From NCBI GenBank assembly GCA_965215185.1, contig OZ244034.1, positions 928,001 to 992,000 of the forward strand: 64,000 nucleotides of DNA, written 5' to 3'. This document shows positions 43,186 to 62,419 of this stretch, one piece after another. How positions within the stretch are numbered: the first letter of the stretch is position 1; every line of letters starts with the position of its first letter. Position numbers and translations under genes: made by a program. The notes below the pieces were generated by a model. It saw only the letters and a list, made by a program, of their open reading frames with translations. It ran no database searches and was not told the DNA's origin. This stretch comes from Acidimicrobiia bacterium (lineage in GTDB: Bacteria > Actinomycetota > Acidimicrobiia > Spongiisociales > ZC4RG35).

Positions 43186-43233
43186 CTGTGAGTATGTAGG
43201 GGGTGCTCTCGATTTGACAACCATAGGAGCATC
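43186..43233 (+). mobile_element. 48-bp IS110 relic: B-like left end joined to A-type right end
   Basis: CTGTGAGTATGTAGGGGGTGC resembles the B left end; CTCGATTTGACAACCATAGGAGCATC is identical to the A right end. Confidence 0.7.
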
Positions 43234-47273: not shown

Positions 47274-48304
47274 GTGATCCCCTCTCCGTATGGCTTCGGC
47301 ATCGTCGCCGACGCATCGTCCGCAGTTCGTTTGCGCCGACGGTTCCCCGTCTGTCCCAGCTTGCCCACTCTGATTCGCGGGTCGGCGACTGTGTACAGCA
47401 CGTCAGCAAGAAGTGAGAAGAATATGACGAGGAGCGCGCCGAAGAAAGCTATTCCCTGCACAAGCTGGAAGTCGCGGTTGCTTACCGCCTCGGCCAACAA
47501 CCCTCCCGCTCCCGGCCAAGCAAAAACAGCTTCGATATACAGCGATCCACCCAGCAGCGCCCCGATCTGCAGGCTCATTACGCTGATGAGCGGGATGAGA
47601 GCGTTGCGCAGGATGTAGCGTCTGTAGATGACCAGCGCTCGGAGGCCTTTGCTGCGAGCGATGCGGACGTACTCCTCGTTGACGATCTCGAGCACTGACG
47701 ATCTCGTGAACCGCAGAAGCTGAGCCATCGGAAACAAGCCGAGCGCGACCGCCGGCAAGATGATCGACTTGTTAGGTATGGTGAAAAACCACATCGATAT
47801 CGTGCCGCGCCCGAACGACGGCAGCCACCTGAGCTGAACGGCGAACACCACGATGAAGACCAACGCCAGCCAGAAATTCGGAATCGTCTGGCCCAGCAGA
47901 CCGAGACCGCGCGCCGCACTATCCCAGCGGCCGCCCGCCTTGACACCCGCGAGGATGCCGAGCGGTACTCCGACCGCTACCGCTAAGGCCATCGCCGCGA
48001 GGCCGAGCTCGATCGTCGCCGGCATCCGGTCGAAGACCACTTCTCGTACCGGGACCTTGTAGCGAAGCGAACTACCGAAGTCGAGGCGGGCCGCGTCCGC
48101 CACGAAGTCGACAAACTGCTCAACAACGGTCTTGTCCAGGCCATACGCCTGCCGTGCCGCCTCTCTTTGCTCCTGGGTTGCCTCCCGGGGAACTAGCAGG
48201 TTGGTCGGGTCCCCTGACACTCGCAGCATCAAGAAGACGATCACCATCACGCCGAGCACCAGCAGCAGTGCCTGGCCTATGCGCCCGACTAGGTACCTCT
48301 TCAC
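47270..48304 (-). CDS. Peptide ABC permease (DppB-like)
   Basis: GDP, EYVRIARSKG, EAVFAWPG, DPRI. Confidence 0.92.
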   Translation of the reverse strand: MKRYLVGRIGQALLLVLGVMVIVFLMLRVSGDPTNLLVPREATQEQREAARQAYGLDKTVVEQFVDFVADAARLDFGSSLRYKVPVREVVFDRMPATIELGLAAMALAVAVGVPLGILAGVKAGGRWDSAARGLGLLGQTIPNFWLALVFIVVFAVQLRWLPSFGRGTISMWFFTIPNKSIILPAVALGLFPMAQLLRFTRSSVLEIVNEEYVRIARSKGLRALVIYRRYILRNALIPLISVMSLQIGALLGGSLYIEAVFAWPGAGGLLAEAVSNRDFQLVQGIAFFGALLVIFFSLLADVLYTVADPRIRVGKLGQTGNRRRKRTADDASATMPKPYGEGIT

Positions 48305-48405
48305 CGACTCTCTCCCTCTGCTCGGCCCTTTTCATCTTGATTGGTGGGACCGAGGCGCAACACCCCGGCCCCACCAATGGATGACAGCTCAGTAACCTGC
48401 GTCGA

Positions 48406-49944
48406 TCAGCCGGCCACCTCCAAGTCCCAAAGCCAGTACTCCTCGGCCGAACGCGGCTTGTAGTTGGCGACCCGATCACTCGTTGCTTCGAACGAGAACG
48501 GCACGTAGAGATAGATGAACGGTGGGTCGTCGTACATCTGCTGCTGCAATTGCCGGTACAGATCCGCACGAGCGTTGTCGTCGGGGGTCGCGAGTATCTC
48601 AAGGAGGAGGCTGTCAACCACCGGGTCGGACCATGCTGAGTAGCTCGCAGCTTGGCCGCCCATGGCCCCTTGCAGGCGGTCCCAGCCCTCGGGATTGGCG
48701 TTCGACCAACTGTCACCGAACAACGGCGGCAACTGCTTGTCCGCCTCCAGATCCCAGTACGCCCCGGACTCCATGATATCGAGCGACACGTTCACTCCTA
48801 CCTCGCCGAGCTGGGCCGCGACGGATTCGCACACCTGCTCGAAGTTGGTGTAGGCAGCTGACGGGCAGGCGAATCCGATGTCGAACCCCTCGGGATACCC
48901 GGCTTCGGCCAACAACTCCCGCGCCCGATCAGGGTCGTAGGAGAAGGGCGCGAGCGCATCGTTGTAACCGAAGTCGGCGGCCGTCATCAGCCCGGTGGCT
49001 CGGACGCCGTTGCCGTTGAACAGAGCGCCGATGACGCCATCGACGTCGACCGCATGGTTGAGGGCTTGGCGCACTCTGGGATCTTCGGTTGGTTGACCCA
49101 CACCGGAGGTGAGGTTGTTGAACGCGATGTAGTAGACCCGGTTGGTCGGATACTCAATGACGTTGACTCCGTCTACGCCCTCCAGCGATGCGGCTTCGTC
49201 GGGGCTGAGGCGGCTCACGATGTCGACTTCGCCCGTCTGGATCGCTGCGGCCCTGGTGGAGGACTCGGTGATCGGCCGGAAGATGATCCGGTCGAGCTTG
49301 GGGTAGCCCTTGCGCCAGTAGTTCGGGTTCCGGTCCAACACGATGCGGTCGCCCCGGACCCACTCGGTCAGCATGAACGGACCGGTGCCGATCGGCTCTT
49401 GGCCGAAGCCCGTCAGCCCGACCTCGGAGTAGTACTTGGGAGGAACGAAGAACCATATGGCGCCGGTGAGGCCGAGGAACAGTGCGTTGGGTTCCTGTGC
49501 GACTAGCTCGACGGTGTATTCGTCGATCTTGTTCACCTCGGCCGCTCGTTCGTAGTAGTTGAAGTAAGCGTTCTCCGGCTGCTTTTGCACTTCCCACGAG
49601 AACACCACGGCGTCCGCGTTGAACGGCTCGCCGTTGTGGAACATCACGTCCTCGCGCAGCTTGAACGTGTACCTGAGACCATCGTCGGACACTGTCCACG
49701 ACTCGGCGAGGGCCGGCTCGAACTCCAGGTCGTCGTTGATCCACACCAGCGGGTCGAATATCTGGTTGGACACGTTGCCCGCGTTTCGCTCGGCTGCGTT
49801 CGCACCGTCGAGCGCGTTGGGCTGCGTCGTGAGCGCGATCATCAGCTCGCCGCCCGGGGCTGTGCCACAAGCCGCCGCCATCAGAGCGAAGACGCCCACA
49901 AGCAAACACAATTTCCTCATTCTGGATATACGGTTATATGTCAT
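48406..49944 (-). CDS. ABC substrate-binding lipoprotein, family 5
   Basis: MAAAC lipobox, FHNGEP, GTGPF, VRQALN. Confidence 0.92.
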   Translation of the reverse strand: MTYNRISRMRKLCLLVGVFALMAAACGTAPGGELMIALTTQPNALDGANAAERNAGNVSNQIFDPLVWINDDLEFEPALAESWTVSDDGLRYTFKLREDVMFHNGEPFNADAVVFSWEVQKQPENAYFNYYERAAEVNKIDEYTVELVAQEPNALFLGLTGAIWFFVPPKYYSEVGLTGFGQEPIGTGPFMLTEWVRGDRIVLDRNPNYWRKGYPKLDRIIFRPITESSTRAAAIQTGEVDIVSRLSPDEAASLEGVDGVNVIEYPTNRVYYIAFNNLTSGVGQPTEDPRVRQALNHAVDVDGVIGALFNGNGVRATGLMTAADFGYNDALAPFSYDPDRARELLAEAGYPEGFDIGFACPSAAYTNFEQVCESVAAQLGEVGVNVSLDIMESGAYWDLEADKQLPPLFGDSWSNANPEGWDRLQGAMGGQAASYSAWSDPVVDSLLLEILATPDDNARADLYRQLQQQMYDDPPFIYLYVPFSFEATSDRVANYKPRSAEEYWLWDLEVAG

Positions 49945-50044
49945 GTTTTCGCCTCCTGGTTGTTGCTGAAACGCCCCGGGTATCCCGGAGTGTGTTTTAC
50001 TTGAGTCCAGCTCGCTGGACTCGCTTCTGTTAATCATGGTAGTT

Positions 50045-50180
50045 GGTCCGGAACTGGCTTCGAGGGTGCGGTGCCGTTGGCCATCGCGAACTTAGCTTTG
50101 GTGGTGTAACGGGTGGGGTCTCCCACTCCGGCAAGGATCTCGGCTGCGACCAGGGCACCGATGCCGTAAATGTGAGCCTG
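50045..50180 (-). mobile_element. IS110 C-type transposase internal fragment
   Basis: HIYGIGALVAAEILAGVGDPTRYTTKAKFAMANGTAP matches 56066-57094. Confidence 0.8.
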
Positions 50181-50478
50181 TATACATGTCTGTGTGAGGT
50201 GGGTTCTCTGAATCGCACCGATGCTCCTATTTTTGTCAAATTGATGCTTCTATGATCTCCAAATCGGGTTCGGGGGGTGGGTGGGCGTTTCGGTGGAGGG
50301 GTGGTTTCGGGGGTTGGTTGGTGGGTTTTCGAGGAGTCGGTAGAGCTGTCGGGCGATGTACCGTTTGAGACAGCGGCGGGTTTCGCGGGTGGTTTTGCCT
50401 TGGCTGGTGCGTTTGCCGATGTAGGCCCGGGTTTTGGGACAGTATCGGGAGCGGCTGATGGCGATGGTGTGGATGGCT

Positions 50479-51955
50479 TGATGCTCCTATGGTTGTCAAA
50501 TCGAGTTTTGGTGGGGTGTGAGGGTGGTGAGCCATTGGTGGTATTGGGTGGCGAGTTGATGGTTGTGGTAGATGCCTCGCTCGAGTTGTGAGAGGCGTAC
50601 TGGGTAGGTTTGTAGGGCTGTGGCGGCGTGGGTGAGGGTTGTTAGCGCGTTTTTGCGTAGACAGCGAAGATGGGCGCCGTTGGGAGTTTCGGGTGGATTG
50701 GTGAGCAGGTGGTAGATCTGGCGGGCGATGTGGCGTTTCAGGCAGCGGATGATCTCCCGGCGGTTTTTGCCTTCTGTTTGTCTTTTTTGGGCGTAGGCGA
50801 TGGTGGTCTGGTCGTAGCGCATGCGGGTGATGGCGATCCGCCACAGGGCATTGTTGGCTTGGCGGTTGCCGCCCCGGTTGAGCCGGTGGCGTATGGTCCG
50901 TCCCGACGACGCCTGGACGGGACTGGCGCCGCACAATGCTGCGAAGGACGCTTCCGATTGCATGCGTTCGGGGTTGTCACCGGCGGTGACCAACAGGGCA
51001 GCGGCGGTGTCGGCGCCGACTCTGGAGGCGGCTAACAGCGCCGGGTTGACCTGGGCGCAGAGATGGTTGATGTCGGTGGTGAGTTCTTCGATCTCGGCGG
51101 TGAGCGCCTGATATCGGCGGGCCAGGGAACGCAGCGCCTTTTTGGCGTAGGTGACGGTGATGGTGGCTGTTCGGGAACGGAAACCGGCGCAGGCCTTGAC
51201 GCGGGCTTTGGCCGGCAGTCTCTCTAGCTGGTGTTTGACCTGGTCGGGGGCGGTTACCACCAAAGCGTGCAGCTGGTTTATGGCCTGGGTGCGGGCTTTG
51301 GTCGCCGAACGGCGGGCCACCGAAAGCATCCGTATTGCTTCCACTCGACCGTTGCCGCTTTTGGGCACTGCGGTGGCCTGTCCGTTGAGAACCGCCCGTG
51401 CCGCTCCTTGGGCGTCGGTGGCGTCGGTCTTGCCCAACCGGCGGCGCAACTGCCGGTTGGGACGGTTCACCTCTGTCACCTGACACCGGCCTCGGTTAGA
51501 TAACGGGCCAGACCGGCGCCGTAACTGCCGGTGCCCTCTATACCGACCCGGACCACTCGACCGTGTGACCCCAACCAGTCGCCCAGTTGCTGATAACCGG
51601 CCGTGTCGGCCACGAAGGGGGCTGTTCCCAGGACCCGACCGGTGCTGTCCACCACCGCCGCCATGTGAACATCCCGGTGGGTGTCCACCCCACCGCACAC
51701 ATCTACCTGCTGACCTACTGACATGAACAATCCTCCTTGGATAGAATTCTGGCTAATCACCCAGACCCGGTGGCGGGTGGACAGACCACTCAGAATGAGG
51801 GAGAAGCAAAGCTCCTATCAGGTCACATCCGCCCACGGGTCGGGTGAACATCCCCCAGCCGGAAAACAGGCCGACAGATCAAGCCAAAGGCACAACGGCC
51901 AGGTTGAGTTTGGGTCAGACCTGCCCCGGCCTAGGGGCCCTTACAAGTATGAGTG
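50479..51955 (-). mobile_element. IS110 element A (recombinase 51724-50496, frameshift ~51480, C-terminal XRE-like HTH)
   Basis: GVDTH, GIEGTG, KTDATDA, SSG, HRLNRGGNR; CA core present at both junctions. Confidence 0.92.
51745..51935 (-). ncRNA. Predicted bridge RNA of IS110-A (ends approximate)
   Basis: Guides AACUCAACC (51910-51902), UGGCUUG (51886-51880), AUAGGAGC (51818-51811), UGAGUG (51792-51787) match the target flanks and element ends. Confidence 0.85.
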
Positions 51956-52859
51956 GTTGAGTTGGCGGTCGCCGCGTCGGTTCAGTCGGTGACGGGTGTG
52001 TTGTCCCGATGAGGCTTCGAGTGGTGCTACGCCGACTAGACGAGCGAAGGCGGCTTCGTTGCGGCAGCGGCGAGGATGAGACCAGGCAATGAACACTTGG
52101 GCGGCTGTGATAGGGCCGATCCCGGGTTGTTGGAGTAGCTGGGGAGCTACGGTTTGGACCAGTTCGGTGATAGTTGTTTTGAGTTCGGTTGCTTCGGTGG
52201 TGAGTGCGTGGATTCTCCGGGCTGCAGAACGCATCGCCTGTTTGGTGGCGGTGTGTTCGTTGGCCGGTGCTGATCTGAGTCGGAACTTGTGGCATTTGGT
52301 GACCAGGGCAGCAGTGCTCAGGTCACGCAGTTGGTCTCTGAGGTCAATGGGCGCGGTCACTAGGAGGGCTTTCAGTTCGTTGATCGCCGATGTTCTAGCT
52401 GTTATGGCACCACGGCGGGTAGTTTCCAGTACTCGTAGGGCTTCTCGTTCTCCCCTGGCCCGCGGTGTGGGAGGCCGGGAGCGGCCCAGCGCCTGGCGGG
52501 CGGCCCGGCGAGCGTCCAGTGCGTCGGTTTTGGCGCCGTCTCCGGTTGTTGGGTTGGGGTTGTTGAATTCTGTTACCCATTCACCTCGAGCGGCGAGATG
52601 GCTGGTCAGGCCTGCTTCATAGCTACCGGACCCTTCAACAGACCACACGCGACTGGCGGTCTGGGTGTGCTGGTCTGCCCATTTCAACAACCGGTCGTAT
52701 CCCACCCTGGTGGTCTCGAACATTGCGGATGCTTGTTCTCCGGTGGTGGCAGTGTCAACTACTGACGCGGTGACCCGATCACGGTCAGGATCGATTCCGA
52801 TCACATGCTCTACCGTTGTGGCCAACATCAGGACATCTCCCTTCTTCTTTGCGAACTGG

Positions 52860-53060
52860 GTTGTGCCCCGGCTGAGGCGCGATCCGCGAACGGCAGGACT
52901 GTGATGAGTCACACCCCTTTGGGGTGGACAGGCTTCTGATTAGGCCAGCGCGGTACGCCAGGTCGGCGCTGGTGGTCAATGTCGGACAGATCATAGGAAA
53001 GACACCAATCCGGGTCAGTCAAATTTAGGGTCACGACATCACTACCAGCACCGAGCCTGA
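52860..53060 (-). ncRNA. Predicted bridge RNA of IS110-B (ends approximate)
   Basis: Same scaffold as A (GACCC..guide..UG; UU..guide..AUCUGUC): AAAUUUGAC (53026-53018), UCCUAUG (52998-52992), AGAAGC (52937-52932), UCACAG (52904-52899). Confidence 0.8.
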
Positions 53061-53104
53061 GAACCTCCAAGAAGGGCACCCCCCCATATTCTCACAGTCA
53101 AATT

Positions 53105-53178
53105 GATGCTTTTATGATTTGGAAATCGCTTTTCGGGGGTGGGGGTTATTTGAGCTTTTTGGTGGGGGGTTTTCTAGT
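53105..53178 (-). mobile_element. Right end of a second B-type IS110 (B'), truncated by IS481
   Basis: LENPP...* followed by ATCATAAAAGCATC, like the B right end. Confidence 0.75.
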
Positions 53179-54110
53179 TGTCCTTCCCATGGACGTGGTT
53201 GACAGAATGCTTGGATGAGTGAGGGCCTCCTGGTTTGATTCGTGGGATAAGCAACAGTCCTCGAATCAAAAGGAGGCCCTCGTGAGAACCAACTGTAGAA
53301 AGTTGACACCGTTCGGGCGTAGGTTGTTGGTGGATCGGATCCTCGAGTTGGGTTGGCCGGCGGCTCGGGCCGCTGAATCGGTGGGAGTGTCTCGGCAGAC
53401 TGCCTATCGGTGGATGAGACGCTGGCGGGAGGAAGGAGAGGCCGGACTGGAGGATCGCTCCAGCAGGCCTCACCACAGTCCCAATCGGGTCTCTTCTGAG
53501 ATGGAAAAGCGGATCGTTTCGGATCGGATCACAGAGAAGGAAGGCCCCCATCTGATGGCCGGACGGCTGGGTGTACCGCGGTCGACCATCTACGGGGTGC
53601 TCGCCCGCCGGGGACTGTCCCGCCTCTCCGACTTGGACCGGACCACCGGCACACCGATCCGCTATGTGCGAGACTGCCCAGGTGAACTGGTCCACGTGGA
53701 CATCAAGAAACTGGGCAAAATACCTGATGGAGGCGGGTGGCGGGTCCTGGGCCGGTCTCGGGCTAATCCCCGTCAAAAGGTCGGATATGAGTATGTGCAC
53801 TCCATGGTCGATGACCACACCCCAATGGCCTACTCAGAAGCCCTCGACTCCCAGGACGGCCCAACCTGCGCCGGGTTCATGCTCCGCGCCGCCCACTGGT
53901 TCGCCACCTACGGGTATCGCATAGACCGAGTAATGACCGACAACGCCATGGCCTACCGCCGAAGCCGACCCTTCGCCGATGCCCTCGCCCAGATCGGCGC
54001 CGCTCACAAACTGATCCGACCCTACCGACCCCAAACCAACGGGAAAGTGGAACGCTTCCACCAAACCCTCCTCGGAGGATGGGCCTACAAACAACCCTAT
54101 ACCACCAACC
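53179..54110 (+). mobile_element. IS481-family element (transposase from GTG 53282), 3'-truncated by an IS110-A-type left end
   Basis: IR TGTCCTTCCCATGGACGTGGTTGACA; PGELVHVDIKKLG, TDNA, PQTNGKVERF; hairpin 53221-53281 covers the RBS. Confidence 0.9.
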
Positions 54111-54125
54111 ACTCATACTTGTAGG

Positions 54126-54215
54126 TGGAGTTCCCCCGTTATTAAGGACATCTATTCTGTGATCGTGAGGGGTGGTGTTGGTCTCTCGGGAAGGAGGTTT
54201 GAATGCCTGCTCCCT
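54126..54215 (+). mobile_element. IS3-family left-end remnant
   Basis: TGGAGTTCCCCCGTTATTAAGGACA IR-like, then GGAGG-ATG. Confidence 0.5.
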
Positions 54216-54262
54216 GCCAAGCCCAGAGATTGAACAGATTCTTTCGTGACTCGGTTGGGATA

Positions 54263-54430
54263 TCATTTGCCTAAGTAGCGGCTCCATTGTTCCATTATTT
54301 CGCGGCGTCGTTCCAGGAGGTCGGTTCGGGCGTTGGCCTTTTCTACCGCTTTTAGGATTTCGTGACCGAGGGCCTGTTCCGCCACTTCGCGGCTGATCCC
54401 TGTTTCACGACACCAATCCCGAAACGAGCT
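54263..54430 (-). pseudogene. P4-type integrase C-terminal remnant
   Basis: SSFRDWC...ALGH...ARTDLLERRR. Confidence 0.85.
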
Positions 54431-56065
54431 TACGCATGTGGCGGGCACCTCGTGGACGGACGGTTGATGTCCGATCTCACCGGGGGGAAGGTAGCGAGAG
54501 CCTTTTCGCTGTCAAGCGTTCCCCGACAATCCAGTTGGGCAACCCCGGCTACTACCGGCAAGACGAGAAGTTGCTGGTTTGGGATTTGAAAGGAGTGTGC
54601 CCTGGCTGACGAACCGCGGGTCGAGGAACGGCGGAATGGCCCGGCGGATCTAGGGAGGCAAAGGGGAAACGACACCGGAGAAGCCCACACACATCCTCTG
54701 CGGGGGGATAGGCGAAGTTGCCTACACAGGCGTATTCGTCAGAGAGAAGGTCCAGATTTTCTACCTCTACGGAGACAACTGCCTGATCTTCTGCGCAGCG
54801 ATAGCGCCCCGCAACTAGCCGACAGCCAACAACACCTACTCCATGTACCCGCCTGAATCGCGCCGGGTTTCAGTTTGTCCCAATCGGTGCCATGGAAAGG
54901 GTTTGCCCCTTCAGATGTGTAGGTAGCGGTTCCAGTGTTCCATTAGTTGGCGGCGTTGTTCTAGCAGGTCGGTTCGGGCGTAGGCTTTTTCTACAGCGTT
55001 TCGGATTTCGTGTCCGAGGGCCCGTTCGGCGACTTCCCGGTTTACGCCTGTTTCTCCGCACCAGTCTCGAAACGAGCTTCTCATCCCGTGTGGCACACAA
55101 CCCACCTGGTTCTCCTTGCAAAGTTTGCTCATAGTGGCATTGCTCATTGTCCGTCCGGTGGGGGATGGGAAGATCAAACCAGTGCTGGTTGATGTTTGGC
55201 GTGCGGTGAAGAGAACCTTTAGTGCCCCGGTGCTGAGCGGAACCCGGTGTTTTGTCCGGTTTTGGTGTGTTCTGGGGGGATTGTCCAGGTTGCTGTGGCA
55301 AGGTTAATCTCGTCCCATGTGGCGTTTCTGACCTCCCCGCTACGGGTGGCGGTGAGGGTGAGGAATGTGAAAGCGGCGATGGTAGCCCAGTGAGCGTCGG
55401 TGGTTTCGACAGTCCGTATTGCCGTGGCGACTTGGCTGTGGTGGAGGGCTTTCATGTGTTGGGGTCGTTGGGTGTTGGAGCCCAGGGCGGCGGTGATACG
55501 GTCGTCGGCTGGGTTGTTCTCTCGGAACCCCTGGGCGATGCACCATTTCATGACCGCGGCGATCCGTTGTTTGACGCGGCGGGCCGTTTCGGGTGTTGTG
55601 TGCCATATGGGGGTGAGGCAGGCCATGACATTGGCTGTGGTGATTTGGTCCACCCGTTTTTTCCCAAGGTGAGGATAGGCGTAGGTGTGGAGGGTTGACC
55701 GCCAGTGTTCTTCGGACCTGCCGCCAGGTTTCCATTTGGCGGCGTGAAGCTGGATTACTTGTTCGGTGGCCTGGCGAAAGGTGGGTGCTTTGCGGGGGCG
55801 GGGGTTGCGGCCTTCTGCGATGGCTTGGCGGTTTCGGAGAGCCCGCCGGCGGGCTTCGGCGAGGGTGACTGCTGGGTAGCTACCCAGGCCCAGGTTGGTG
55901 TATCTGCCGTTGATCTGGTTTCGTTGTGCCCAGGTTTTGGAGAGTCGCCCCTGGATTTTGGTTGGTTTGACCAACAGAGAAAGTCCATGGCCGCCTCGGC
56001 CGTCGCCATAGCGTCCGGGTTGGGTCACTGTTCTAACGAAAGATGCTGTGAGTGTTGGTGAGCTC

Positions 56066-57094
56066 CTATGTCAAAATCGGGGTTGGTTTTGGTGGTTGGA
56101 GGTGGGTCCAGATGCGGTCTGAGATTCGGCGTTTGAGGACGCGTATGGCGTCTCTGTGGGTCTTTCCTCGGGTGATGAGTTTCTGGTAGTAGCGGCGGCC
56201 TTCGCTGTCTGCGCGGGCGATCTGGGTCAAAGCGGCGGTGTGGATGGCCCGGTTTAGTTGGCGGTTCCCACCCCGGTTGAGTCGATGGCGTACTACTCGT
56301 CCGCTGCTGGCTTCGATGGGTGCGGTGCCGTTGGCCATGGCGAACTTGTCTTTGGTCGCATAGCGGTGTGGGTTGCCCACCTCCGAAAGGATGGTGGCAG
56401 CGACCAGTACACCCACCCCGTGAATGTCTAGTAGACGGGTTTCGGATTGGTCGACCAGTGTTTTGATCTCGGCGGTGAGTTGTTTGATCTCGGTGTCCAG
56501 TTGTCGCAGTCTTCGGATGCGTTGTTTGGCTACCCGCCCGTGGGGGGTGGTGTCCCGCCAACACAGTTTCATGGCCTGGTCGAGGGCTTTTCGGGTGGTG
56601 AGCCGGGGAATGTTCTGGTGGTAGCCTGGTCGGAGTTTCCCCAGGTCGGCGTGGAGCCGGTTGGCCTGGGCGGTGCGGTCTTCTACCAGTTCACGGCGGT
56701 ATGAGACCAGCACACGGAGGTCTTCGGTGTCCTCCCAAAACGTCGGCGGGGCGAGCGTGTTGTCTCGGAGAGCGACCCTGGCGATCACCCAAGCGTCGAC
56801 CTGGTCGGTTTTGGTCTGGGTACGGCCCCGGCGCCGGACCTGGGCGGTCAGCTGCGGTGGAACCTCCCGGATGTCCAGACCAGCGGCCATAGCGGCGACC
56901 GCGGCTGGGCGGCCGAACGTGCCGGACCCCTCGACCGCTACCCTGGCGGCGTTGGTGGTGTGAGCCCAATCTATGAGTTGACGGTGACCAGTAGGGGTGT
57001 TAGCGATGGTCCGGTACTCCAGGGCGGTGCCCAGGTGGTCTACCAAACAGGCAGAAAGGGTATCCTTGTGCGAGTCGATCCCGATAACGAACAT
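56066..57094 (-). CDS. IS110-family DEDD recombinase
   Basis: GIDSH, VEGSG, KTDQVDA, SSG, HRLNRGGNRQLN. Confidence 0.95.
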   Translation of the reverse strand: MFVIGIDSHKDTLSACLVDHLGTALEYRTIANTPTGHRQLIDWAHTTNAARVAVEGSGTFGRPAAVAAMAAGLDIREVPPQLTAQVRRRGRTQTKTDQVDAWVIARVALRDNTLAPPTFWEDTEDLRVLVSYRRELVEDRTAQANRLHADLGKLRPGYHQNIPRLTTRKALDQAMKLCWRDTTPHGRVAKQRIRRLRQLDTEIKQLTAEIKTLVDQSETRLLDIHGVGVLVAATILSEVGNPHRYATKDKFAMANGTAPIEASSGRVVRHRLNRGGNRQLNRAIHTAALTQIARADSEGRRYYQKLITRGKTHRDAIRVLKRRISDRIWTHLQPPKPTPILT

Positions 57095-57119
57095 GGTTCA
57101 ATCCTCCAATTTCGGGGGT

Positions 57120-57305
57120 TTGCGGGAGCGGCAGAAGGCTCGGCGAAGCGCATCCATGCGTCGAAACAACACCCCCACAGGGGGCAGATACAAGTCACGC
57201 TCCTATCAAGCGACAACACCGAGCGGGCAACCGGTGGGGAGACACTCACTAACTAAGCCACCACAATGGGGCAGGGTCGTTTGGAGTCATCCCCACCGGC
57301 ACTGC
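57120..57305 (-). ncRNA. Predicted bridge RNA of IS110-C (ends approximate)
   Basis: 10-bp stem CCGGUGGGGA/UCCCCACCGG encloses AAACGACC (57282-57275) and GUUAGUG (57253-57247); donor guides AUAGGAGC (57206-57199) and ACGCAUG (57161-57155). Confidence 0.85.
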
Positions 57306-57511
57306 CACACCCCAACATATAACACGCATGGTCGTTTCACCCCTGCTTCTCCCTGTCCGCCAATCCAGAGAAGGTCCGGTACCGCCGACTATTTCTAGTG
57401 TGGGTTACTTCGATAGTTATCAACATTGCAATGCGATTAGGTGCAACCCCGTGAGACTGTCTGGAACTACCTAGGACACCAATACCCTGTTGACCTGGGC
57501 AAATATGAACC

Positions 57512-57566
57512 ATATGGGACACTATGCGCCTATATGGGACACTAAACCCGCGGACGTCACCTCCAC
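57512..57566 (+). repeat. ATATGGGACACTA x2 (integrase arm-type sites) and 17-bp direct repeat copy 2
   Basis: 57512-57524 and 57532-57544 are identical; GCGGACGTCACCTCCAC at 57550-57566. Confidence 0.6.
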
Positions 57567-57865
57567 TGCACCCTCACCCGCCTGGAAACACCGTAGAAAA
57601 GCAGTGACAGCCTTCCCCTGACAGGACGGTGACTGTTTGGCGGTCTGCGACGAATGTGCCAGGCGGAATGTCTGAGTGCGGTAGAATACGTAATGTGCAG
57701 ATCGGAGTCCGAATTGCCTGTTTGGAGCAGAACAACCATGAACACCGCGCTCGGGGGGATTGGACCCGGCGGTCTGCCGTACCGTTCATCCTATCCCGGG
57801 AGAAGTGTGGGACGGATTGTGGGACGAATGGGCGAATTTGGCCATCTACCTGGTTAAAGACGGGG

Positions 57866-57909
57866 TCTCATAGTCCGTTGGTTGCAGGTTCGAGTCCTGC
57901 CGGGCCCAC
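57866..57909 (+). mobile_element. tRNA 3'-half fragment (CAT anticodon loop), att core
   Basis: TCTCATAGTCCGTTGGTT GCAGG TTCGAGT CCTGC CGGGCCCAC, preceded by TGTGGGACG x2. Confidence 0.78.
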
Positions 57910-58084
57910 ACCGTTCCACCTCGTTCCGTGGGGTTTCACGCATTGCTAAACGCCCAGGTCAGAGGCCCCATTTGCATTCACAGTGGCACTGACATCCCCC
58001 GCATATGGCGTTGCTGAATTCCCAAGTTGTTTCTGGTAGTTTCATCTCATTGTGGGGCAGCATGGAACAGAATAGGGGGCAGAA

Positions 58085-58237
58085 ATGCCGAAAATGACAG
58101 CAGTGGGTGTCCGCTCAGCCAAACCAGGTTCACATAGTGACGGCAACGGACTCATTCTGAGAGTCTCGCCTACCGGAGCAAAACGATGGATGTGGAGAGG
58201 GACAATCCAAGGAAAACGACGAGACTTGGGCCTCGGG
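58085..58237 (+). pseudogene. P4-type integrase N-terminal (arm-binding) remnant
   Basis: MPKMTAVGVRSAKPG..DGNGLILRV...KRW...GKRRDLGLG. Confidence 0.85.
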
Positions 58238-58379
58238 TTGTCAGCCCGTTGGCGACATTGGATGGGATGGCCGGGCGCGGAGTGGGGGTGGGTGGCTGTT
58301 CGCTGTCTAGTTAGTTTTCGTCGTTGTTGAAGTTGTTGGGTTGACGTAGGTTGTGCGCGATTAGCAGAGCGAGCAGTCT

Positions 58380-58929
58380 TGCCCCCTATCCCGGTGGCGT
58401 GAAACACAAGCACTTCGTAACCGCCGCTTTCCACCACTCCGCGGGTCCTTTTCGATGCACTCCGTCGTGTTGCCGAACATGGACGCGGTAACCAGGGGAC
58501 GCTCCTCGCCTGCCGGCGGCTGGTCCAGCTTGATCATGCCGGCGATTGCCCCGCCGCGTTGGAGAATATGGCGCGACTGATGGTGTTGATCCCGCCGACG
58601 TCGACGATGGACGGGACGAACACGATGTCCCTGGTGCCCGCGTAGGTGCTGACATCGCCGCCCGCCACCGTGGAAACCACCACCTTGGGCGCATCAACGG
58701 GCAGAACGCGCATTCCCGTCGTGGCAATGGAGGTACCGCCGGTGCCGCCCATCCCGATGATTCCGCCGAGCTTTCCCTCGTCGTGCAGCCGACGGACCGT
58801 TAGGCCATTTGCCATGGTCTGCATGGCCTCCTCTTTGTGGTCGCCAGAAGCGAAGTAGGAGATGTCGCCCCCTGCCGCCGCTGCGACCTCCTCTCTGGTG
58901 ACATCGGGCTCGAAATCGGGCGCGCCCAT
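58380..58929 (-). pseudogene. Tm-1-like ATP-binding (UPF0261) protein fragment, frameshifted
   Basis: GMGGTGGTS...PKVVVST...PSIVDVGGIN...FSNAA; GYEVLVFHATGIGG in another frame. Confidence 0.85.
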
Positions 58930-59169
58930 CGTCCTGAAGTATGCGGGTCAACTGCATATCATCTCCAGCCAGCCCGAGAGCAGCGTCCCCGCCAGTCAGG
59001 GATGAGACATACGCGTCCAGAATGCGAGACTGGGCTGGGTCACGCCGCCGTCCCACCCTCGTAAACTGATTAGTGTTCATTCCGTCGGTGGCCCTTTGGA
59101 CGCCTTTTCTCGAACATCGTTGACGGCAAGTCAAATATTCGAATACGCACACGAACTGAGAAAGTCGAC

Positions 59170-60021
59170 ATGCAACACAAACCGCTAAACGGAAAAGTCG
59201 CAATCGTTACCGGCGCCGGCAGCCCCATCGGCATGGGCCGCGCCATGACGTTTGCCCTGGTGCAGGCCGGGGCACGCGTCGCGATGCTGGACATCAACGA
59301 AGAGTGGCTGGAGCAGTCCGCAGGCGAGGTCCGAGCGGCCGGTGGGGACGAATGTGTCCTGGACTTGGTCTGCGATATCTCAGACCCCGAAAGCGTGGAG
59401 GACGCTGTCCGCAAGACGATAGCCGGGCTCGGTGGGCTCCACGTGCTGATCAACAACGCTGGAACGACCAACCTTGCGGACCTCGCCGGCGGCAATCTTC
59501 CCAAGTTCTGGGACATCGCTCCCGAGACATGGAGCAGGATCATCGCTGTCAATTCCAGCGGATCGTTCTTCATGGCCCGGGCGGCAGTGGGCCACATGCT
59601 CGACCAGGGATGGGGTCGGATAATAGGCGTCACGACCAGCGTCGACAGCATGTACCGGCCGGGCCTGTGCCCCTACGGTCCATCCAAGGCAAGCCACGAG
59701 GCGCTCGTCGCTCTCATGTCCCGTGAATTGGAGGGGACCGGAGTAACCGGCAACGTACTCGTCCCCGGCGGCCAGACCGACACCCACATCATTCCCGATG
59801 ACATCGCGGTGGGGCGGGCGATCCTCATGCGGCCGGAAGTGATGAACGGGCCCGCGGTGTGGCTCGCGTCCGAGGAGTCGGACGGGACCAACGGCATGCG
59901 CCTGATTGCCCACTACTGGGACGACAGCTTGCCCATAGAACAGCGGCTCGAAAAGGCCGCCGCGCCTGCCGCCTGGCCGCAACTTGGCAAGCAGGCTATA
60001 TTCGGGGGAGACGACTTGTGA
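59170..60021 (+). CDS. SDR family oxidoreductase
   Basis: VTGAGS.IGMG, INNAG, YGPSK. Confidence 0.92.
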   Translation: MQHKPLNGKVAIVTGAGSPIGMGRAMTFALVQAGARVAMLDINEEWLEQSAGEVRAAGGDECVLDLVCDISDPESVEDAVRKTIAGLGGLHVLINNAGTTNLADLAGGNLPKFWDIAPETWSRIIAVNSSGSFFMARAAVGHMLDQGWGRIIGVTTSVDSMYRPGLCPYGPSKASHEALVALMSRELEGTGVTGNVLVPGGQTDTHIIPDDIAVGRAILMRPEVMNGPAVWLASEESDGTNGMRLIAHYWDDSLPIEQRLEKAAAPAAWPQLGKQAIFGGDDL

Positions 60022-62294: not shown

Positions 62295-62410
62295 GGCGCT
62301 TGTCTCAAAACGGTACTTCGCTCGACAACTCTGCCGACCCCTCGAAAACCCACCACCAACCACCCCAGAATCCGATTTGCAAGACATAGAAGCACAACCA
62401 TAGGAGCATC
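62295..62410 (+). mobile_element. IS110 B-type 3' remnant fused into an A-type right end
   Basis: Decayed CLKRYxARQL..LENPP; ...GACATAGAAGCA|CAACCATAGGAGCATC. Confidence 0.78.
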
Positions 62411-62419
62411 GATGAGCCA

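Follow-up and report, generated by a model that had tools for sequence, protein, structure and literature searches.

Locus and element anatomy

The window analysed here, a 64,000-nucleotide stretch of genomic DNA, contains three IS110-family elements on the minus strand. An earlier note on this DNA had proposed these elements, and they proved real, with boundaries exact to the nucleotide including the flanking core bases. The elements and their recombinase genes are:

50479..51955, minus strand: element A, IS110-family, A-type, inside the B recombinase gene (from Pfam, junctions and uninterrupted B-type genes)
50496..51724, minus strand: A recombinase pseudogene, two overlapping frames with a break near 51481
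50243..53097, minus strand: element B, IS110-family, B-type, in two pieces, 51956-53097 and 50243-50478, on either side of A
56059..57330, minus strand: element C, IS110-family, C-type, intact (from Pfam, copies and empty site)
56066..57094, minus strand: C recombinase gene, an open frame of 342 aa (Pfam DEDD_Tnp_IS110, E 6e-31; Transposase_20, E 2e-20)

The recombinase frames of A, B and C alike match the Pfam families DEDD_Tnp_IS110 and Transposase_20. The DEDD_Tnp_IS110 match in C (E 6e-31) spans profile positions 1-151 of 155, that in B has E 9e-15, and that in A (E 9e-10) is partial because of the frameshift; the C-terminal Transposase_20 matches (PF02371) range from E 2e-20 to 6e-16 across the three. 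Searched against the PDB, the C protein finds IS621 (8wt6, E 9e-20) and ISCro4 (9t56, E 3e-17), and a Ser-Ser-Gly stretch that aligns with the Glu-Ser-Gly-Ser region of IS621 is a candidate for the conserved serine. All three elements have a long non-coding left end upstream of the recombinase gene and lack terminal inverted repeats, with only a core of 1-2 nt repeated at the junctions, as in the IS110 group. The recombinase stop codon falls within a GATTTGA or CATAG of the right end. Assignment to the IS1111 group was rejected, given the long non-coding region upstream of the gene and recombinase ORFs that extend into the right end.

Only C looks intact: it is present in three genomic copies that are 100% identical over 1272 bp and differ in their flanks. 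A and B are inactive copies. An extra C after 51481 is found in contigs of 4 of 4 sequencing runs aligned to the A gene, whose type has at least 10 copies in the genome (72-100% identity), and the B recombinase gene is interrupted by A. Their guides are therefore fossils, and of the three bridge-RNA systems that the note had described in the window, one may still work and two are relics.

The elements are surrounded by pieces of other mobile DNA:

50045..50171, minus strand: fragment of a C-like IS110 recombinase gene (Transposase_20 region; 76.7% to C positions 904-1032; Pfam match at genome 978061-978171)
50209..50219, minus strand: 11-nt IS3-type terminus (GGTGCGATTCA), adjoining the D right end
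50220..50242, minus strand: remnant of an A-type ('D') right end, AATTTGACAAAAATAGGAGCATC, which flanks B on the right
53098..53143, minus strand: B0, the remnant of another B-type right end, which ends at 53105, plus AATTTGA; the left flank of B
53219..54124, plus strand: IS481-family transposase ORF between the B nest and the integrase (Pfam LZ_Tnp_IS481, rve)
54110..54125, plus strand: 16-nt A-type left-end stub (CACTCATACTTGTAGG) at the 3' end of the IS481-family ORF
54870..56058, minus strand: body of a P4-type integrase gene, the target of C (Pfam Arm-DNA-bind_3, Phage_int_M, Phage_integrase), with a frameshift near 55240-55300
57331..57340, minus strand: first 10 nt (GTGAAACGAC) of the same integrase gene, separated from the body by C

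The B0 remnant is 82.6% identical to the right end of B itself. A flank similar to the IS3-type terminus follows three other A-type right ends in the genome, one of which adjoins IS3-family orfA and orfB. The suggestion that A-type ends also occur in IS3 inverted repeats and in IS481 elements thus stands for the window only in a reduced form: the first as the 11-nt terminus at 50209-50219 beside an A-type right end, the second as the 16-nt left-end stub at 54110-54125.

Empty sites fix the junctions. C splits the P4-type integrase gene at codon 4, and the uninterrupted start of a paralogous integrase gene in the same genome reads GTGAGACGAC-CA-CCAACACTC (...GACGAC-CA-CCAAC...); in addition, one metagenome contig (run X8, record 28) connects 56058 directly with 57329. 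The insertion site of A is read through uninterrupted in three B-type genes. C is flanked by a CA core on either side and A by C on the left and CA on the right, and A- and B-type copies have C flanks with a variable second core base at the right junction (CA, CG, CT or CC). The core of these elements thus differs from the CT of IS621: it is CA in C, and in A- and B-type copies it is a C followed by a base that varies. To our knowledge, a CT core is not required across the whole IS110 family.

Predicted bridge RNAs

The note's description of a non-coding left end of about 200-260 bp with four short segments holds for each element, at lengths of 231-269 nt:

51725..51955, minus strand: A left end, predicted bridge RNA gene, 231 nt (guides are variable blocks in a conserved scaffold)
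52829..53097, minus strand: B left end, predicted bridge RNA gene, 269 nt (from guide matches and layout)
57095..57330, minus strand: C left end, predicted bridge RNA gene, 236 nt (LTG co-varies with the flank in C-type relatives)

In all three, two internal loops carry first a pair of target guides (LTG and RTG) and then a pair of donor guides (LDG and RDG), a layout that agrees with the IS110 bridge-RNA layout in the available part of PMC11208160, as had been claimed. The segments and their matches are:

A: LTG 51902-51911, 9/10 to the left flank plus C; RTG 51880-51886, 7/7; LDG 51811-51818, 8/8 to the A right end; RDG 51787-51792, 6/6 to C plus the left-end start
B: LTG 53018-53027, 9/10 to the left flank; RTG 52992-52998, 2/7 to the present flank and 7/7 to CATAGGA in the C right end; LDG 52932-52938, 6/6 (AGAAGC); RDG 52899-52904, 6/6
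C: LTG 57275-57282, 8/8; RTG 57247-57253, 6/7; LDG 57199-57206, 8/8; RDG 57155-57161, 7/7

In each of the three elements, one side of the donor loop thus matches the right end and the other the left end, although LDG pairing in A and C ends three bases before the core unless wobble (G-U) pairs are counted. The one exception noted earlier, a right target guide of B that fits the end of C and not B's present flank, is borne out by the scores of 7/7 and 2/7. Although the sequences differ between the three types, each has a complementary lower helix in the target loop (CAGGTC/GGCCTG, 6/6 pairs in A; TGTCG/CGACA, 5/5 in B; GGTGGGGA/TCCCCACC, 8/8 in C), and GAC/GTC is also present in each. No bridge-RNA model matched in an Rfam search.

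Guide covariation

If the blocks are guides, each copy's blocks should fit its own flanks better than those of other copies, and the guide-target covariation that the note had named as a check is found both in this genome and at loci in other genomes. At 16 left junctions of this genome, the LTG scores 8.3/10 against its own flank and 4.3/10 against other flanks (236 cross pairs); its register shifts by one base between A-type subgroups, and both registers were allowed in these tests. At 11 right junctions, the RTG scores 5.1/7 against its own flank and 2.5/7 against others, with a poor fit of 3/7 at the right junction of the B3 copy. The observed sums were attained by 0 of 100000 shuffles for the LTG and 1 of 100000 for the RTG, counts that overstate independence because the copies of one genome, and the genomes of one genus, are related by descent. 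Across 12 loci in other genomes of the order, the LTG scores 7.3 against its own flank and 3.7 across loci, and the RTG, read at 11 of the 12, scores 5.5 and 2.5. By these tests the guide matches exceed chance, and the scores and shuffles, with the two sides of the loop pairing with opposite target strands, fit a target-binding loop. The A-type copies of this one genome, at 72-100% identity, carry at least nine different LTGs.

Donor guides co-vary with element ends: a left end CACTCC is paired with an RDG GGAGTG at loci L025 and L026, a right end ATAGAAGC with an LDG ATAGAAGC at L034, and GTAGGAGC is common to right end and LDG at L030 and L033.

Insertion targets

The decoded targets had been placed in other mobile elements, and this holds well beyond the three elements of the window. 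Thirteen of 19 left junctions from this genome fall within IS110, ISL3 or IS256 sequence or at the start of an integrase gene. Mobile elements make up no more than about 5% of the genome even when counted generously, as 104 Pfam matches of 1.5 kb; this is the comparison with background that had been suggested. IS3 is also among the target classes here, through the IS3-type flanks of A-type right ends. A-type copies that are 98.7-100% identical interrupt the genes of B and B2 at the identical codon, although B and B2 are only 77% identical. B-type copies lie within A-type recombinase genes (B5 is one) and A-type left ends, A-type copies lie within A-type right ends, and A5 and A6 lie within ISL3 ends. 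The B-type copies B3 and B8 sit inverted within the RDG region of A-type left ends here, and B-type copies do so in genomes G400 and G010 as well. Relatives in other genomes are inserted in istB/IS21, in IS3 orfB, in DDE-transposase (rve) genes and in A-, B- and C-type IS110 sequence, including an A-type copy in a C-type recombinase gene (G348); a C-type relative lies at an rve_3 transposase motif.

Parts of the earlier picture need revision. Insertion does not run one way down a hierarchy but forms a network of mutual hits (A in B, B in A, A in A, B in C), and host genes are not fully spared: two junctions of the 19-junction set lie in host-like genes, an A-type copy interrupting a PD40-repeat gene and a B-type copy a UvrD-like helicase gene. 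None of the own-genome insertion sites examined lies in IS21, and Pfam gives no clear IS21 element in this genome, only two weak IstB matches, which fits guides that follow the resident mobilome.

Discussion

From the element anatomy, the empty sites, the covariation of guides with flanks and with element ends, and the target classes that we observe, we consider it very probable that these are IS110-group elements whose bridge-RNA guides are aimed mostly at other mobile DNA, and that the nests formed by guided insertion. We propose that each element carries a gene for a DEDD/Ser recombinase and, ahead of it in the left end, a predicted gene for a bridge RNA, so that the left end would act as RNA. 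The target-binding loop would hold a 10-nt LTG with the sense of the left target and the core C, and a 7-nt RTG complementary to the core and the right target; the LDG and RDG of the donor-binding loop would read the junction of the element's own right and left ends. The element would move as a circle, recombining at the C(A) core with a site that fits both target guides, and the copies were probably moved by a mechanism of the IS621 type. In most copies of the three clades (A, B and C), which belong to one bacterial genus and its order, the guides appear set to conserved mobile-element sequences: motif-coding stretches of IS110, IS256, IS21 (istB), IS3 and IS481-type genes, integrase gene starts, ISL3 and IS3 terminal repeats, and the right ends and bridge-RNA genes of sister IS110 elements. 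In the window, B would have inserted beside older IS110 right ends, A then into the B recombinase gene, and C separately into an integrase start. Aim at mobile DNA may be favoured because such sites are multi-copy, neutral to the host and travel with the mobilome, and disabling of the target element may be a by-product.

The alternative that survives best, though we think it unlikely, is that the guides are real and the nests arose mainly by homologous recombination, gene conversion or recombination at half-matching sites and not by successive full-match insertions, in which case the order 'A into B into a C/A-type end' would be no record of targeting. B itself invites this explanation: its LTG fits the left flank 9/10 and its RTG the right flank only 2/7, and CAATTTGAC brackets it on both sides, beside another B-type right end. 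Likewise, an A-type copy at genome 371-374 kb is a mosaic (98.7% and then 95.4% to A) that lacks the stretch between two TCTGTC motifs and whose left and right flanks are different sites of an IS110 gene, and the available part of a 2026 preprint (10.64898/2026.08.31.748434) reports that IS621 recombines half-RNA-matching sites. Against it, the insertions of A into B, of C into the integrase, of B5 into an A-type gene and of A5 and A6 into ISL3 ends are simple, as are those at most loci from other genomes: the two guides agree with the two flanks, and reading frames or empty sites are contiguous.

It is considerably less probable that insertion is loose and that nesting says nothing about aiming, only copies in neutral DNA such as dead IS elements and prophage remnants having persisted. 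The region is indeed a heap of broken mobile DNA (frameshifted integrase, IS fragments, solo ends), 6 of the 19 left-junction contexts have no assignment, and purifying selection against insertions in host genes must also enrich survivors for mobile DNA. Survival would not, however, make the variable 10-nt and 7-nt blocks of each copy fit its own flanks or strike the identical nucleotide position in diverged hosts and other genomes; moreover, the sites are conserved motif-coding stretches and not random IS positions, and intact elements with intact empty sites exist. That the left-end blocks are protein-binding or promoter DNA with no RNA involved, matching flanks through DNA-DNA homology at the crossover because targets resemble the element's own ends, is highly improbable even though the A, B and C right ends are mutually similar and some targets are such ends. 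The blocks lie 45-75 nt inside the left end, away from the crossover, one sense and the other antisense to the target in a helix-bounded loop whose helix shows compensatory changes among the three types. Moreover, targets such as integrase starts, ISL3 ends and the istB and rve motifs are unlike element ends, and the recombinases are homologous to IS621 and ISCro4, solved as bridge-RNA complexes (PMC11208158, in the part available).

The known systems closest to these elements are the IS621/IS110-group bridge recombinases (Durrant et al. 2024, PMC11208160; Hiraizumi et al. 2024, PMC11208158). As described in the available parts of these papers, the two share a DEDD and Transposase_20 recombinase, a guide RNA gene in the left end upstream of it, and two loops whose 5' side has top-strand sense and whose 3' side is complementary, with the core within the pairing; the target guides are variable, and the donor guides follow the ends of the element. 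The strand rule given in the available text of PMC11208160, that the two target-loop sides pair with opposite strands of the left and right target, is the one followed here. The present elements differ from IS621 in their guides (LTG of 10 nt, RTG of 7 nt), in left ends that match no Rfam model, in recombinases that are only distantly similar (E 9e-20), and in natural targets that are other mobile elements instead of REP sequences. The REP-targeting IS110 elements ISPpu9, ISPpu10 and ISPa11, as far as the available sources describe them, similarly aim at a multi-copy, selectively neutral genomic repeat, but that repeat is host-encoded and immobile, and insertion disables nothing.

Tn21-family terminal repeats or integron attC sites are the targets of the IS4321/IS5075 and attC-targeting IS1111 elements. 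Partridge and Hall in 2003 and Post and Hall in 2009 reportedly dealt with these elements. These are likewise DEDD elements that use one fixed position in a conserved mobile sequence, but they belong to the IS1111 group, with a seekRNA region downstream of the gene, subterminal inverted repeats and a single target class per element. The literature searched contained no description of reciprocal targeting between DEDD elements, or of DEDD-element insertions in transposase coding motifs or in a rival's guide RNA gene.

A bolder reading, which we regard as doubtful, is that the IS110 clades of this bacterial order wage an RNA-guided conflict against the rest of the mobilome and one another, their sites selected to knock out competitors. 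Guides may have been selected for such disabling rather than for finding neutral multi-copy sites. If true, this would be a transposon analogue of CRISPR-type warfare between elements, in which target loops are retargeted repeatedly and the victim is disabled at chosen positions: codons for catalytic motifs in IS110, IS481/IS3-type and IS21 (istB) genes, codon 4 of integrases, or the donor-binding loop of a rival's bridge RNA.

Bridge RNAs are known as programmable guides, and their natural programming beyond REP sequences has been little discussed. The elements described here form a natural series of close relatives with a constant scaffold, in which both target blocks were rewritten on many occasions; most of the decoded targets are other transposons, integrases and sister IS110 elements. 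This is a ready data set for pairing rules (register, core tolerance, half-matches) in a clade distant from IS621. Nested IS110 copies also fragment transposase and integrase genes at predictable places, and thus carry a warning for annotation. More broadly, our analysis lets IS110 elements be viewed, in a way that can be tested, as mobilome parasites whose spread would be set by the other elements of the genome and which may curb them.

Results

Boundaries and state of the elements

Elements A, B and C, all IS110 members on the minus strand, lie in the window, bases 928001-992000 of one 3.12-Mb contig, with the following features.

50479-51955, minus strand: A (A-type); recombinase frame 50496-51698 (Pfam DEDD_Tnp_IS110 and Transposase_20)
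50243-53097, minus strand: B (B-type), split by A; 5' part of recombinase frame 51941-52912 (same Pfam pair)
56059-57330, minus strand: C (C-type), in the start of a P4-type integrase gene; intact recombinase frame of 342 aa, 56066-57094 (same Pfam pair)
53105-53143: another B-type right-end remnant, B's left neighbor, then AATTTGA
50220-50242: A-type right end, B's right neighbor
50209-50219: 11-nt IS3-type terminus adjoining that A-type right end

Shared ends, empty sites and uninterrupted genes bear out the coordinates first assigned to the three elements exactly, including the flanking core bases. The three copies of C in the genome (100% identity over 1272 bp) are alike from CATGCG... through ...GGAGCTCA, with different sequence on either side, and an uninterrupted paralogous integrase gene elsewhere in the genome reads GTGAGACGAC-CA-CCAACACTC; together these make C 1270 bp long with a CA core on either side. 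One metagenome contig (run X8, record 28) joins 56058 directly to 57329, and since it is only ~93% identical we take it as the empty C site of a relative. GDRQLNRALH reads unbroken across A's insertion point in three uninterrupted B-type genes, and contigs of all four runs omit 1475-1482 nt between 50471-50479 and 51954-51956, most simply because they represent B-type genes without A. The contig joints 51991->56301, 51995->56309, 50241->50526 and 50244->50522 were discounted as paralogue mapping, as were depth and missing cover.

A-type elements start C/ACTCATAC and finish ...ATAGGAGCAT/C, and B-type elements start C/TGTGAG and finish ...CATAGAAGCAT/C. The second core base varies, with right junctions of CA, CG, CT or CC. 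No single core model (CA, NC or C alone) abolishes a one-base register difference between subgroups of A-type junctions, and two registers were therefore allowed in the guide tests.

Among solved bridge recombinases, C's protein matches IS621 (8wt6, E 9e-20) and ISCro4 (9t56, E 3e-17). A's recombinase gene has a frame break near 51481, where contigs of all four public runs covering the region carry one extra C, and B's gene is severed into two by A; the window thus holds one possibly working element, C, and two relics. One tblastn query for B was an out-of-frame translation, and its matches serve as position markers only. A search of 40000-64000 found no tRNA genes.

Guide layout and covariation

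The left ends of A, B and C measure 231, 269 and 236 nt. Each contains an internal loop enclosed by a helix in which a T is bulged and GAC/GTC forms a clamp, and the helix strands (A, CAGGTC/GGCCTG; B, TGTCG/CGACA; C, GGTGGGGA/TCCCCACC) pair completely at every position despite their differing sequence. Thirteen A-type left ends, aligned across several genomes, have an almost invariant scaffold broken by two variable blocks: one of 10 nt that varies throughout, on the loop's 5' side, and one of 6-7 nt on its 3' side. Both blocks of a second loop downstream are nearly constant. The earlier note had recognized a four-segment bridge-RNA layout here, and the anatomy seen in these left ends agrees with the description in Durrant et al. 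2024 (PMC11208160). A search of 48000-60000 against Rfam for a bridge-RNA family gave no match at E up to 1 apart from a chance IRES match.

Predicted target guides (LTG, left; RTG, right) and donor guides (LDG, left; RDG, right), with matching positions
A LTG: AAACTCAACC against flank CAACTCAAC+C; 9/10
A RTG: TGGCTTG against CAAGCCA; 7/7
A LDG: ATAGGAGC against the right end; 8/8
A RDG: TGAGTG against C+ACTCA; 6/6
B LTG: TAAATTTGAC against TCAATTTGA+C; 9/10
B RTG: TCCTATG against the present flank; 2/7
B LDG: AGAAGC; 6/6
B RDG: TCACAG against C+TGTGA; 6/6
C LTG: AAACGACC; 8/8
C RTG: GTTAGTG; 6/7 at integrase sites, 7/7 at the third C copy
C LDG: ATAGGAGC; 8/8
C RDG: ACGCATG against CA+TGCGT; 7/7

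GTTAGTG was assigned as C's RTG because it is the homologous block in the loop alignment with A and B and fits the core-adjacent bases. The same alignment rejected GTGAGTGT, which is complementary to ACACTCAC, six bases past the core.

At least ten A-type and at least eight B-type left ends with differing variable blocks are present in the genome, and target guides track their own flanks both here and at 12 loci elsewhere, as expected under the covariation check proposed earlier. The LTG agrees with its own flank at a mean of 8.3 of 10 positions over 16 left junctions, versus 4.3 across 236 cross-element guide-flank pairs; for the RTG, the means at 11 right junctions are 5.1 of 7 versus 2.5. 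The observed sums were reached by 0 of 100000 flank reshufflings for the LTG, with two registers one base apart permitted, and by 1 of 100000 for the RTG.

An intact A-type protein found matches at E 1e-40 or better in 114 of 401 genomes of the order, among them all but one of the 11 others in the genus; the tally counts two genomes flagged unpublished (G004 and G196), of which no sequence was used. We read the left ends of related loci directly; a strict regular expression had caught 4 of 30. The left end could be read at 12 fetched loci, where LTG scores are 7.3 versus 3.7; for the 11 of these with an RTG read, RTG scores are 5.5 versus 2.5. Donor guides follow as well: the RDG is GGAGTG where the left end starts CACTCC (L025, L026), and the LDG carries the same ATAGAAGC as the right end in L034 and the same GTAGGAGC in L030 and L033. 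C-type relatives pair LTG AACTGAACC with flank AAGTGAAC+C in one genome (G348) and LTG AAACTAACG with flank AAACCAAC+G in another (G294). Because both the copies and the genomes are related, all these figures overstate independence; the pattern as such is beyond doubt.

Insertion sites in this genome

We placed 19 left junctions genome-wide, six of them without an assigned context. IS110 sequence is the context of eight, the 3' ends of ISL3 transposase genes of two, an IS256-family gene of one and integrase starts of two. Matches to seven mobile-element Pfam families number 104 in the genome and, at 1.5 kb each, a generous estimate, cover ~5% of the sequence; against that yardstick these contexts uphold the proposal that the guides aim at mobile DNA. 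Two further parts of that proposal are not supported as worded. Host genes are not fully spared, since host-like genes hold two left junctions, one in a PD40-repeat gene and one in a gene for a UvrD-like helicase. Nor is there a strict hierarchy: A (after ...RQLN in B's Transposase_20 domain) and the A-type copy A2 lie in B-type genes, B5 lies in an A-type gene at ...ANN/ALWRIA, and A-type right ends hold A4 and A13. B adjoins IS110 ends, and the B-type copies B3 and B8 sit inverted within A-type left ends, at the RDG. C is inserted in codon 4 of its integrase gene, the body of which (54870-56058) is also frameshifted.

Junctions with a right end only add B-type ends followed by a C-type right end (two cases) or by A-type right ends or A-type genes, and A-type ends followed by an IS3-type terminus (four cases, one adjoined by IS3 orfA and orfB). 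A two-mismatch search for that terminus gave 1739 matches, useless as a count, and its individual matches are leads only. Other A-type ends are followed by GATGAGCC or GAAGAGCC, which we read as ISL3-type termini. There is no clear IS21 in this genome, and none of its examined insertion sites lies in one.

A conserved start (GTGAAACGACCA.CAACAC...) is common to at least six P4-type integrase genes, for example at genome 21464, 896975, 921953 and 2504934, and the 29 Phage_integrase matches in the 3.1-Mb genome are a high load. One integrase start, equal to C's site save one guide-paired position, is still empty.

The right junction of B

B's RTG had been said to fit the end of C rather than B's present flank, and it does: it predicts C-ATAGGA, the crossover sequence of C-type right ends (TTTTGA-C-ATAGGAGCTCA, window 56064-56076). 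ATAGGAGCTCA directly follows two B-type right-end fragments elsewhere in the genome. B's actual right flank is AATTTGACAAAAATAGG..., and its left junction carries the same CAATTTGAC. We could not derive from a single full-match insertion the arrangement B0 end - CAATTTGA - C - B - C - AATTTGAC - AAAAATAGG..., where B0 is the B-type right-end remnant beside B. One possible origin is an insertion for which only the left half served as guide, and half-match events are reported for IS621 in a 2026 preprint (10.64898/2026.08.31.748434). Later recombination between IS110 ends is another; a mosaic, internally deleted A-type copy at genome 371-374 kb shows that copies do recombine with one another in this genome.

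Genome 370.9-375.2 kb (part of it locus L054) is an A-/B-type nest five or six levels deep, with a B-type copy in an A-type gene, three stacked right ends, and an A-type copy that splits a B-type gene at the codon where A sits in the window. The A-type copy in this nest has lost its donor-binding loop between two TCTGTC motifs.

Other mobile debris

Window 43186-43233 (plus strand, 48 nt) joins a B-type left-end start (CTGTGAGTATGTAGGGGGTGC) directly with the A-type right end TCTCGATTTGACAACCATAGGAGCATC, after which comes the IS3-type terminus GGTACGGTTCA; the structure could be a chimera formed by internal deletion, or a footprint. At 62372-62411 (plus strand), a B-type right end breaks off at CATAGAAGC and passes without a gap into the A-type right end ACAACCATAGGAGCATC and then GATGAGCC, a further stack of IS110 ends at what looks like an ISL3-type terminus. 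A 45-nt terminal repeat (...GGACTCAAGTAAAACAC...GGGGCGTTTCA) lies at 49967-50011 (minus strand), between a solute-binding-protein gene and the IS110 debris, and the same repeat type bounds a 2.1-kb IS30-like element (HTH_38 and weak rve) at genome 3010417-3012542; from its position, the pile may have begun inside such an element. A 36-nt sequence at 50166-50201 (minus strand) recurs exactly or near-exactly at seven other genome sites, three of them (415-606, 2340546-2340710, 2993749-2993940) with a Transposase_mut (IS256-family) match within ~160-360 bp, and is probably the end of another multi-copy IS.

The third C copy lies in a region (genome 1.59-1.67 Mb) with ~25 occurrences, at 70-83% identity, of a ~240-nt stretch of its right flank, a repeated gene or element family; an Abi_C-domain ORF is nearby. 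A tandem array of ~1.3-kb period (GTGACCGTCACCACTACCGTGCC...) at genome 7.5-12.7 kb looks like a large repetitive surface-protein gene.

Insertion sites in other genomes

A-type relatives lie within istB (L021), at IS21 ends (L026, L028, L030), in an IS3-family orfB (L032), at an IS3-type terminus (L031) and, in G348, in a C-type recombinase gene after RHRLN. In G400 and G010, B-type copies occupy A-type left ends in inverted orientation, at the position also used here, and a C-type relative with two copies in G294 splits ...PQTN/GKVERF... in the rve_3 region of a DDE transposase. A junction pattern search of 131 genomes of the family, with one mismatch allowed, gave two real matches in G000, two chance matches and, in G348, a real junction of A-type within C-type sequence plus an A-type left end that is unrelated, a tally that means little because a reversed control pattern matched 14 times.

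Discussion

By sequence, A, B and C are IS110-group members with predicted IS621-type bridge RNAs, and differ from IS621 in their core, in the lengths of their guides and in their natural targets. Conserved sequences of other elements are known targets of IS4321 and IS5075, IS1111-group elements that insert at Tn21-family ends, and of the attC-targeting group. REP repeats are known targets of IS621, ISPpu9, ISPpu10 and ISPa11. Searches of the open literature other than supplementary files returned no account of IS110 elements that target coding motifs of transposases or integrases, or each other's genes, ends or guide-RNA regions, and none of multi-level reciprocal nests; the supplementary tables of natural targets in PMC11208160 could hold such cases.

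Homology and anatomy suggest that the left end would be transcribed into a bridge RNA, and that the recombinase would bring the circle junction (right end - core - left end) to a target read by LTG and RTG, with strand exchange at a C(A) core that is tolerant at its second base. That these elements aim at mobile DNA holds. Their sites fall where the victim element is disabled, in catalytic-domain codons, in gene starts and in a rival's donor-binding loop, and there may be selection for knocking out the victim. Target blocks are often rewritten, and the copies that spread may be those whose blocks fit conserved, multi-copy, host-harmless sequences that travel with the mobilome.
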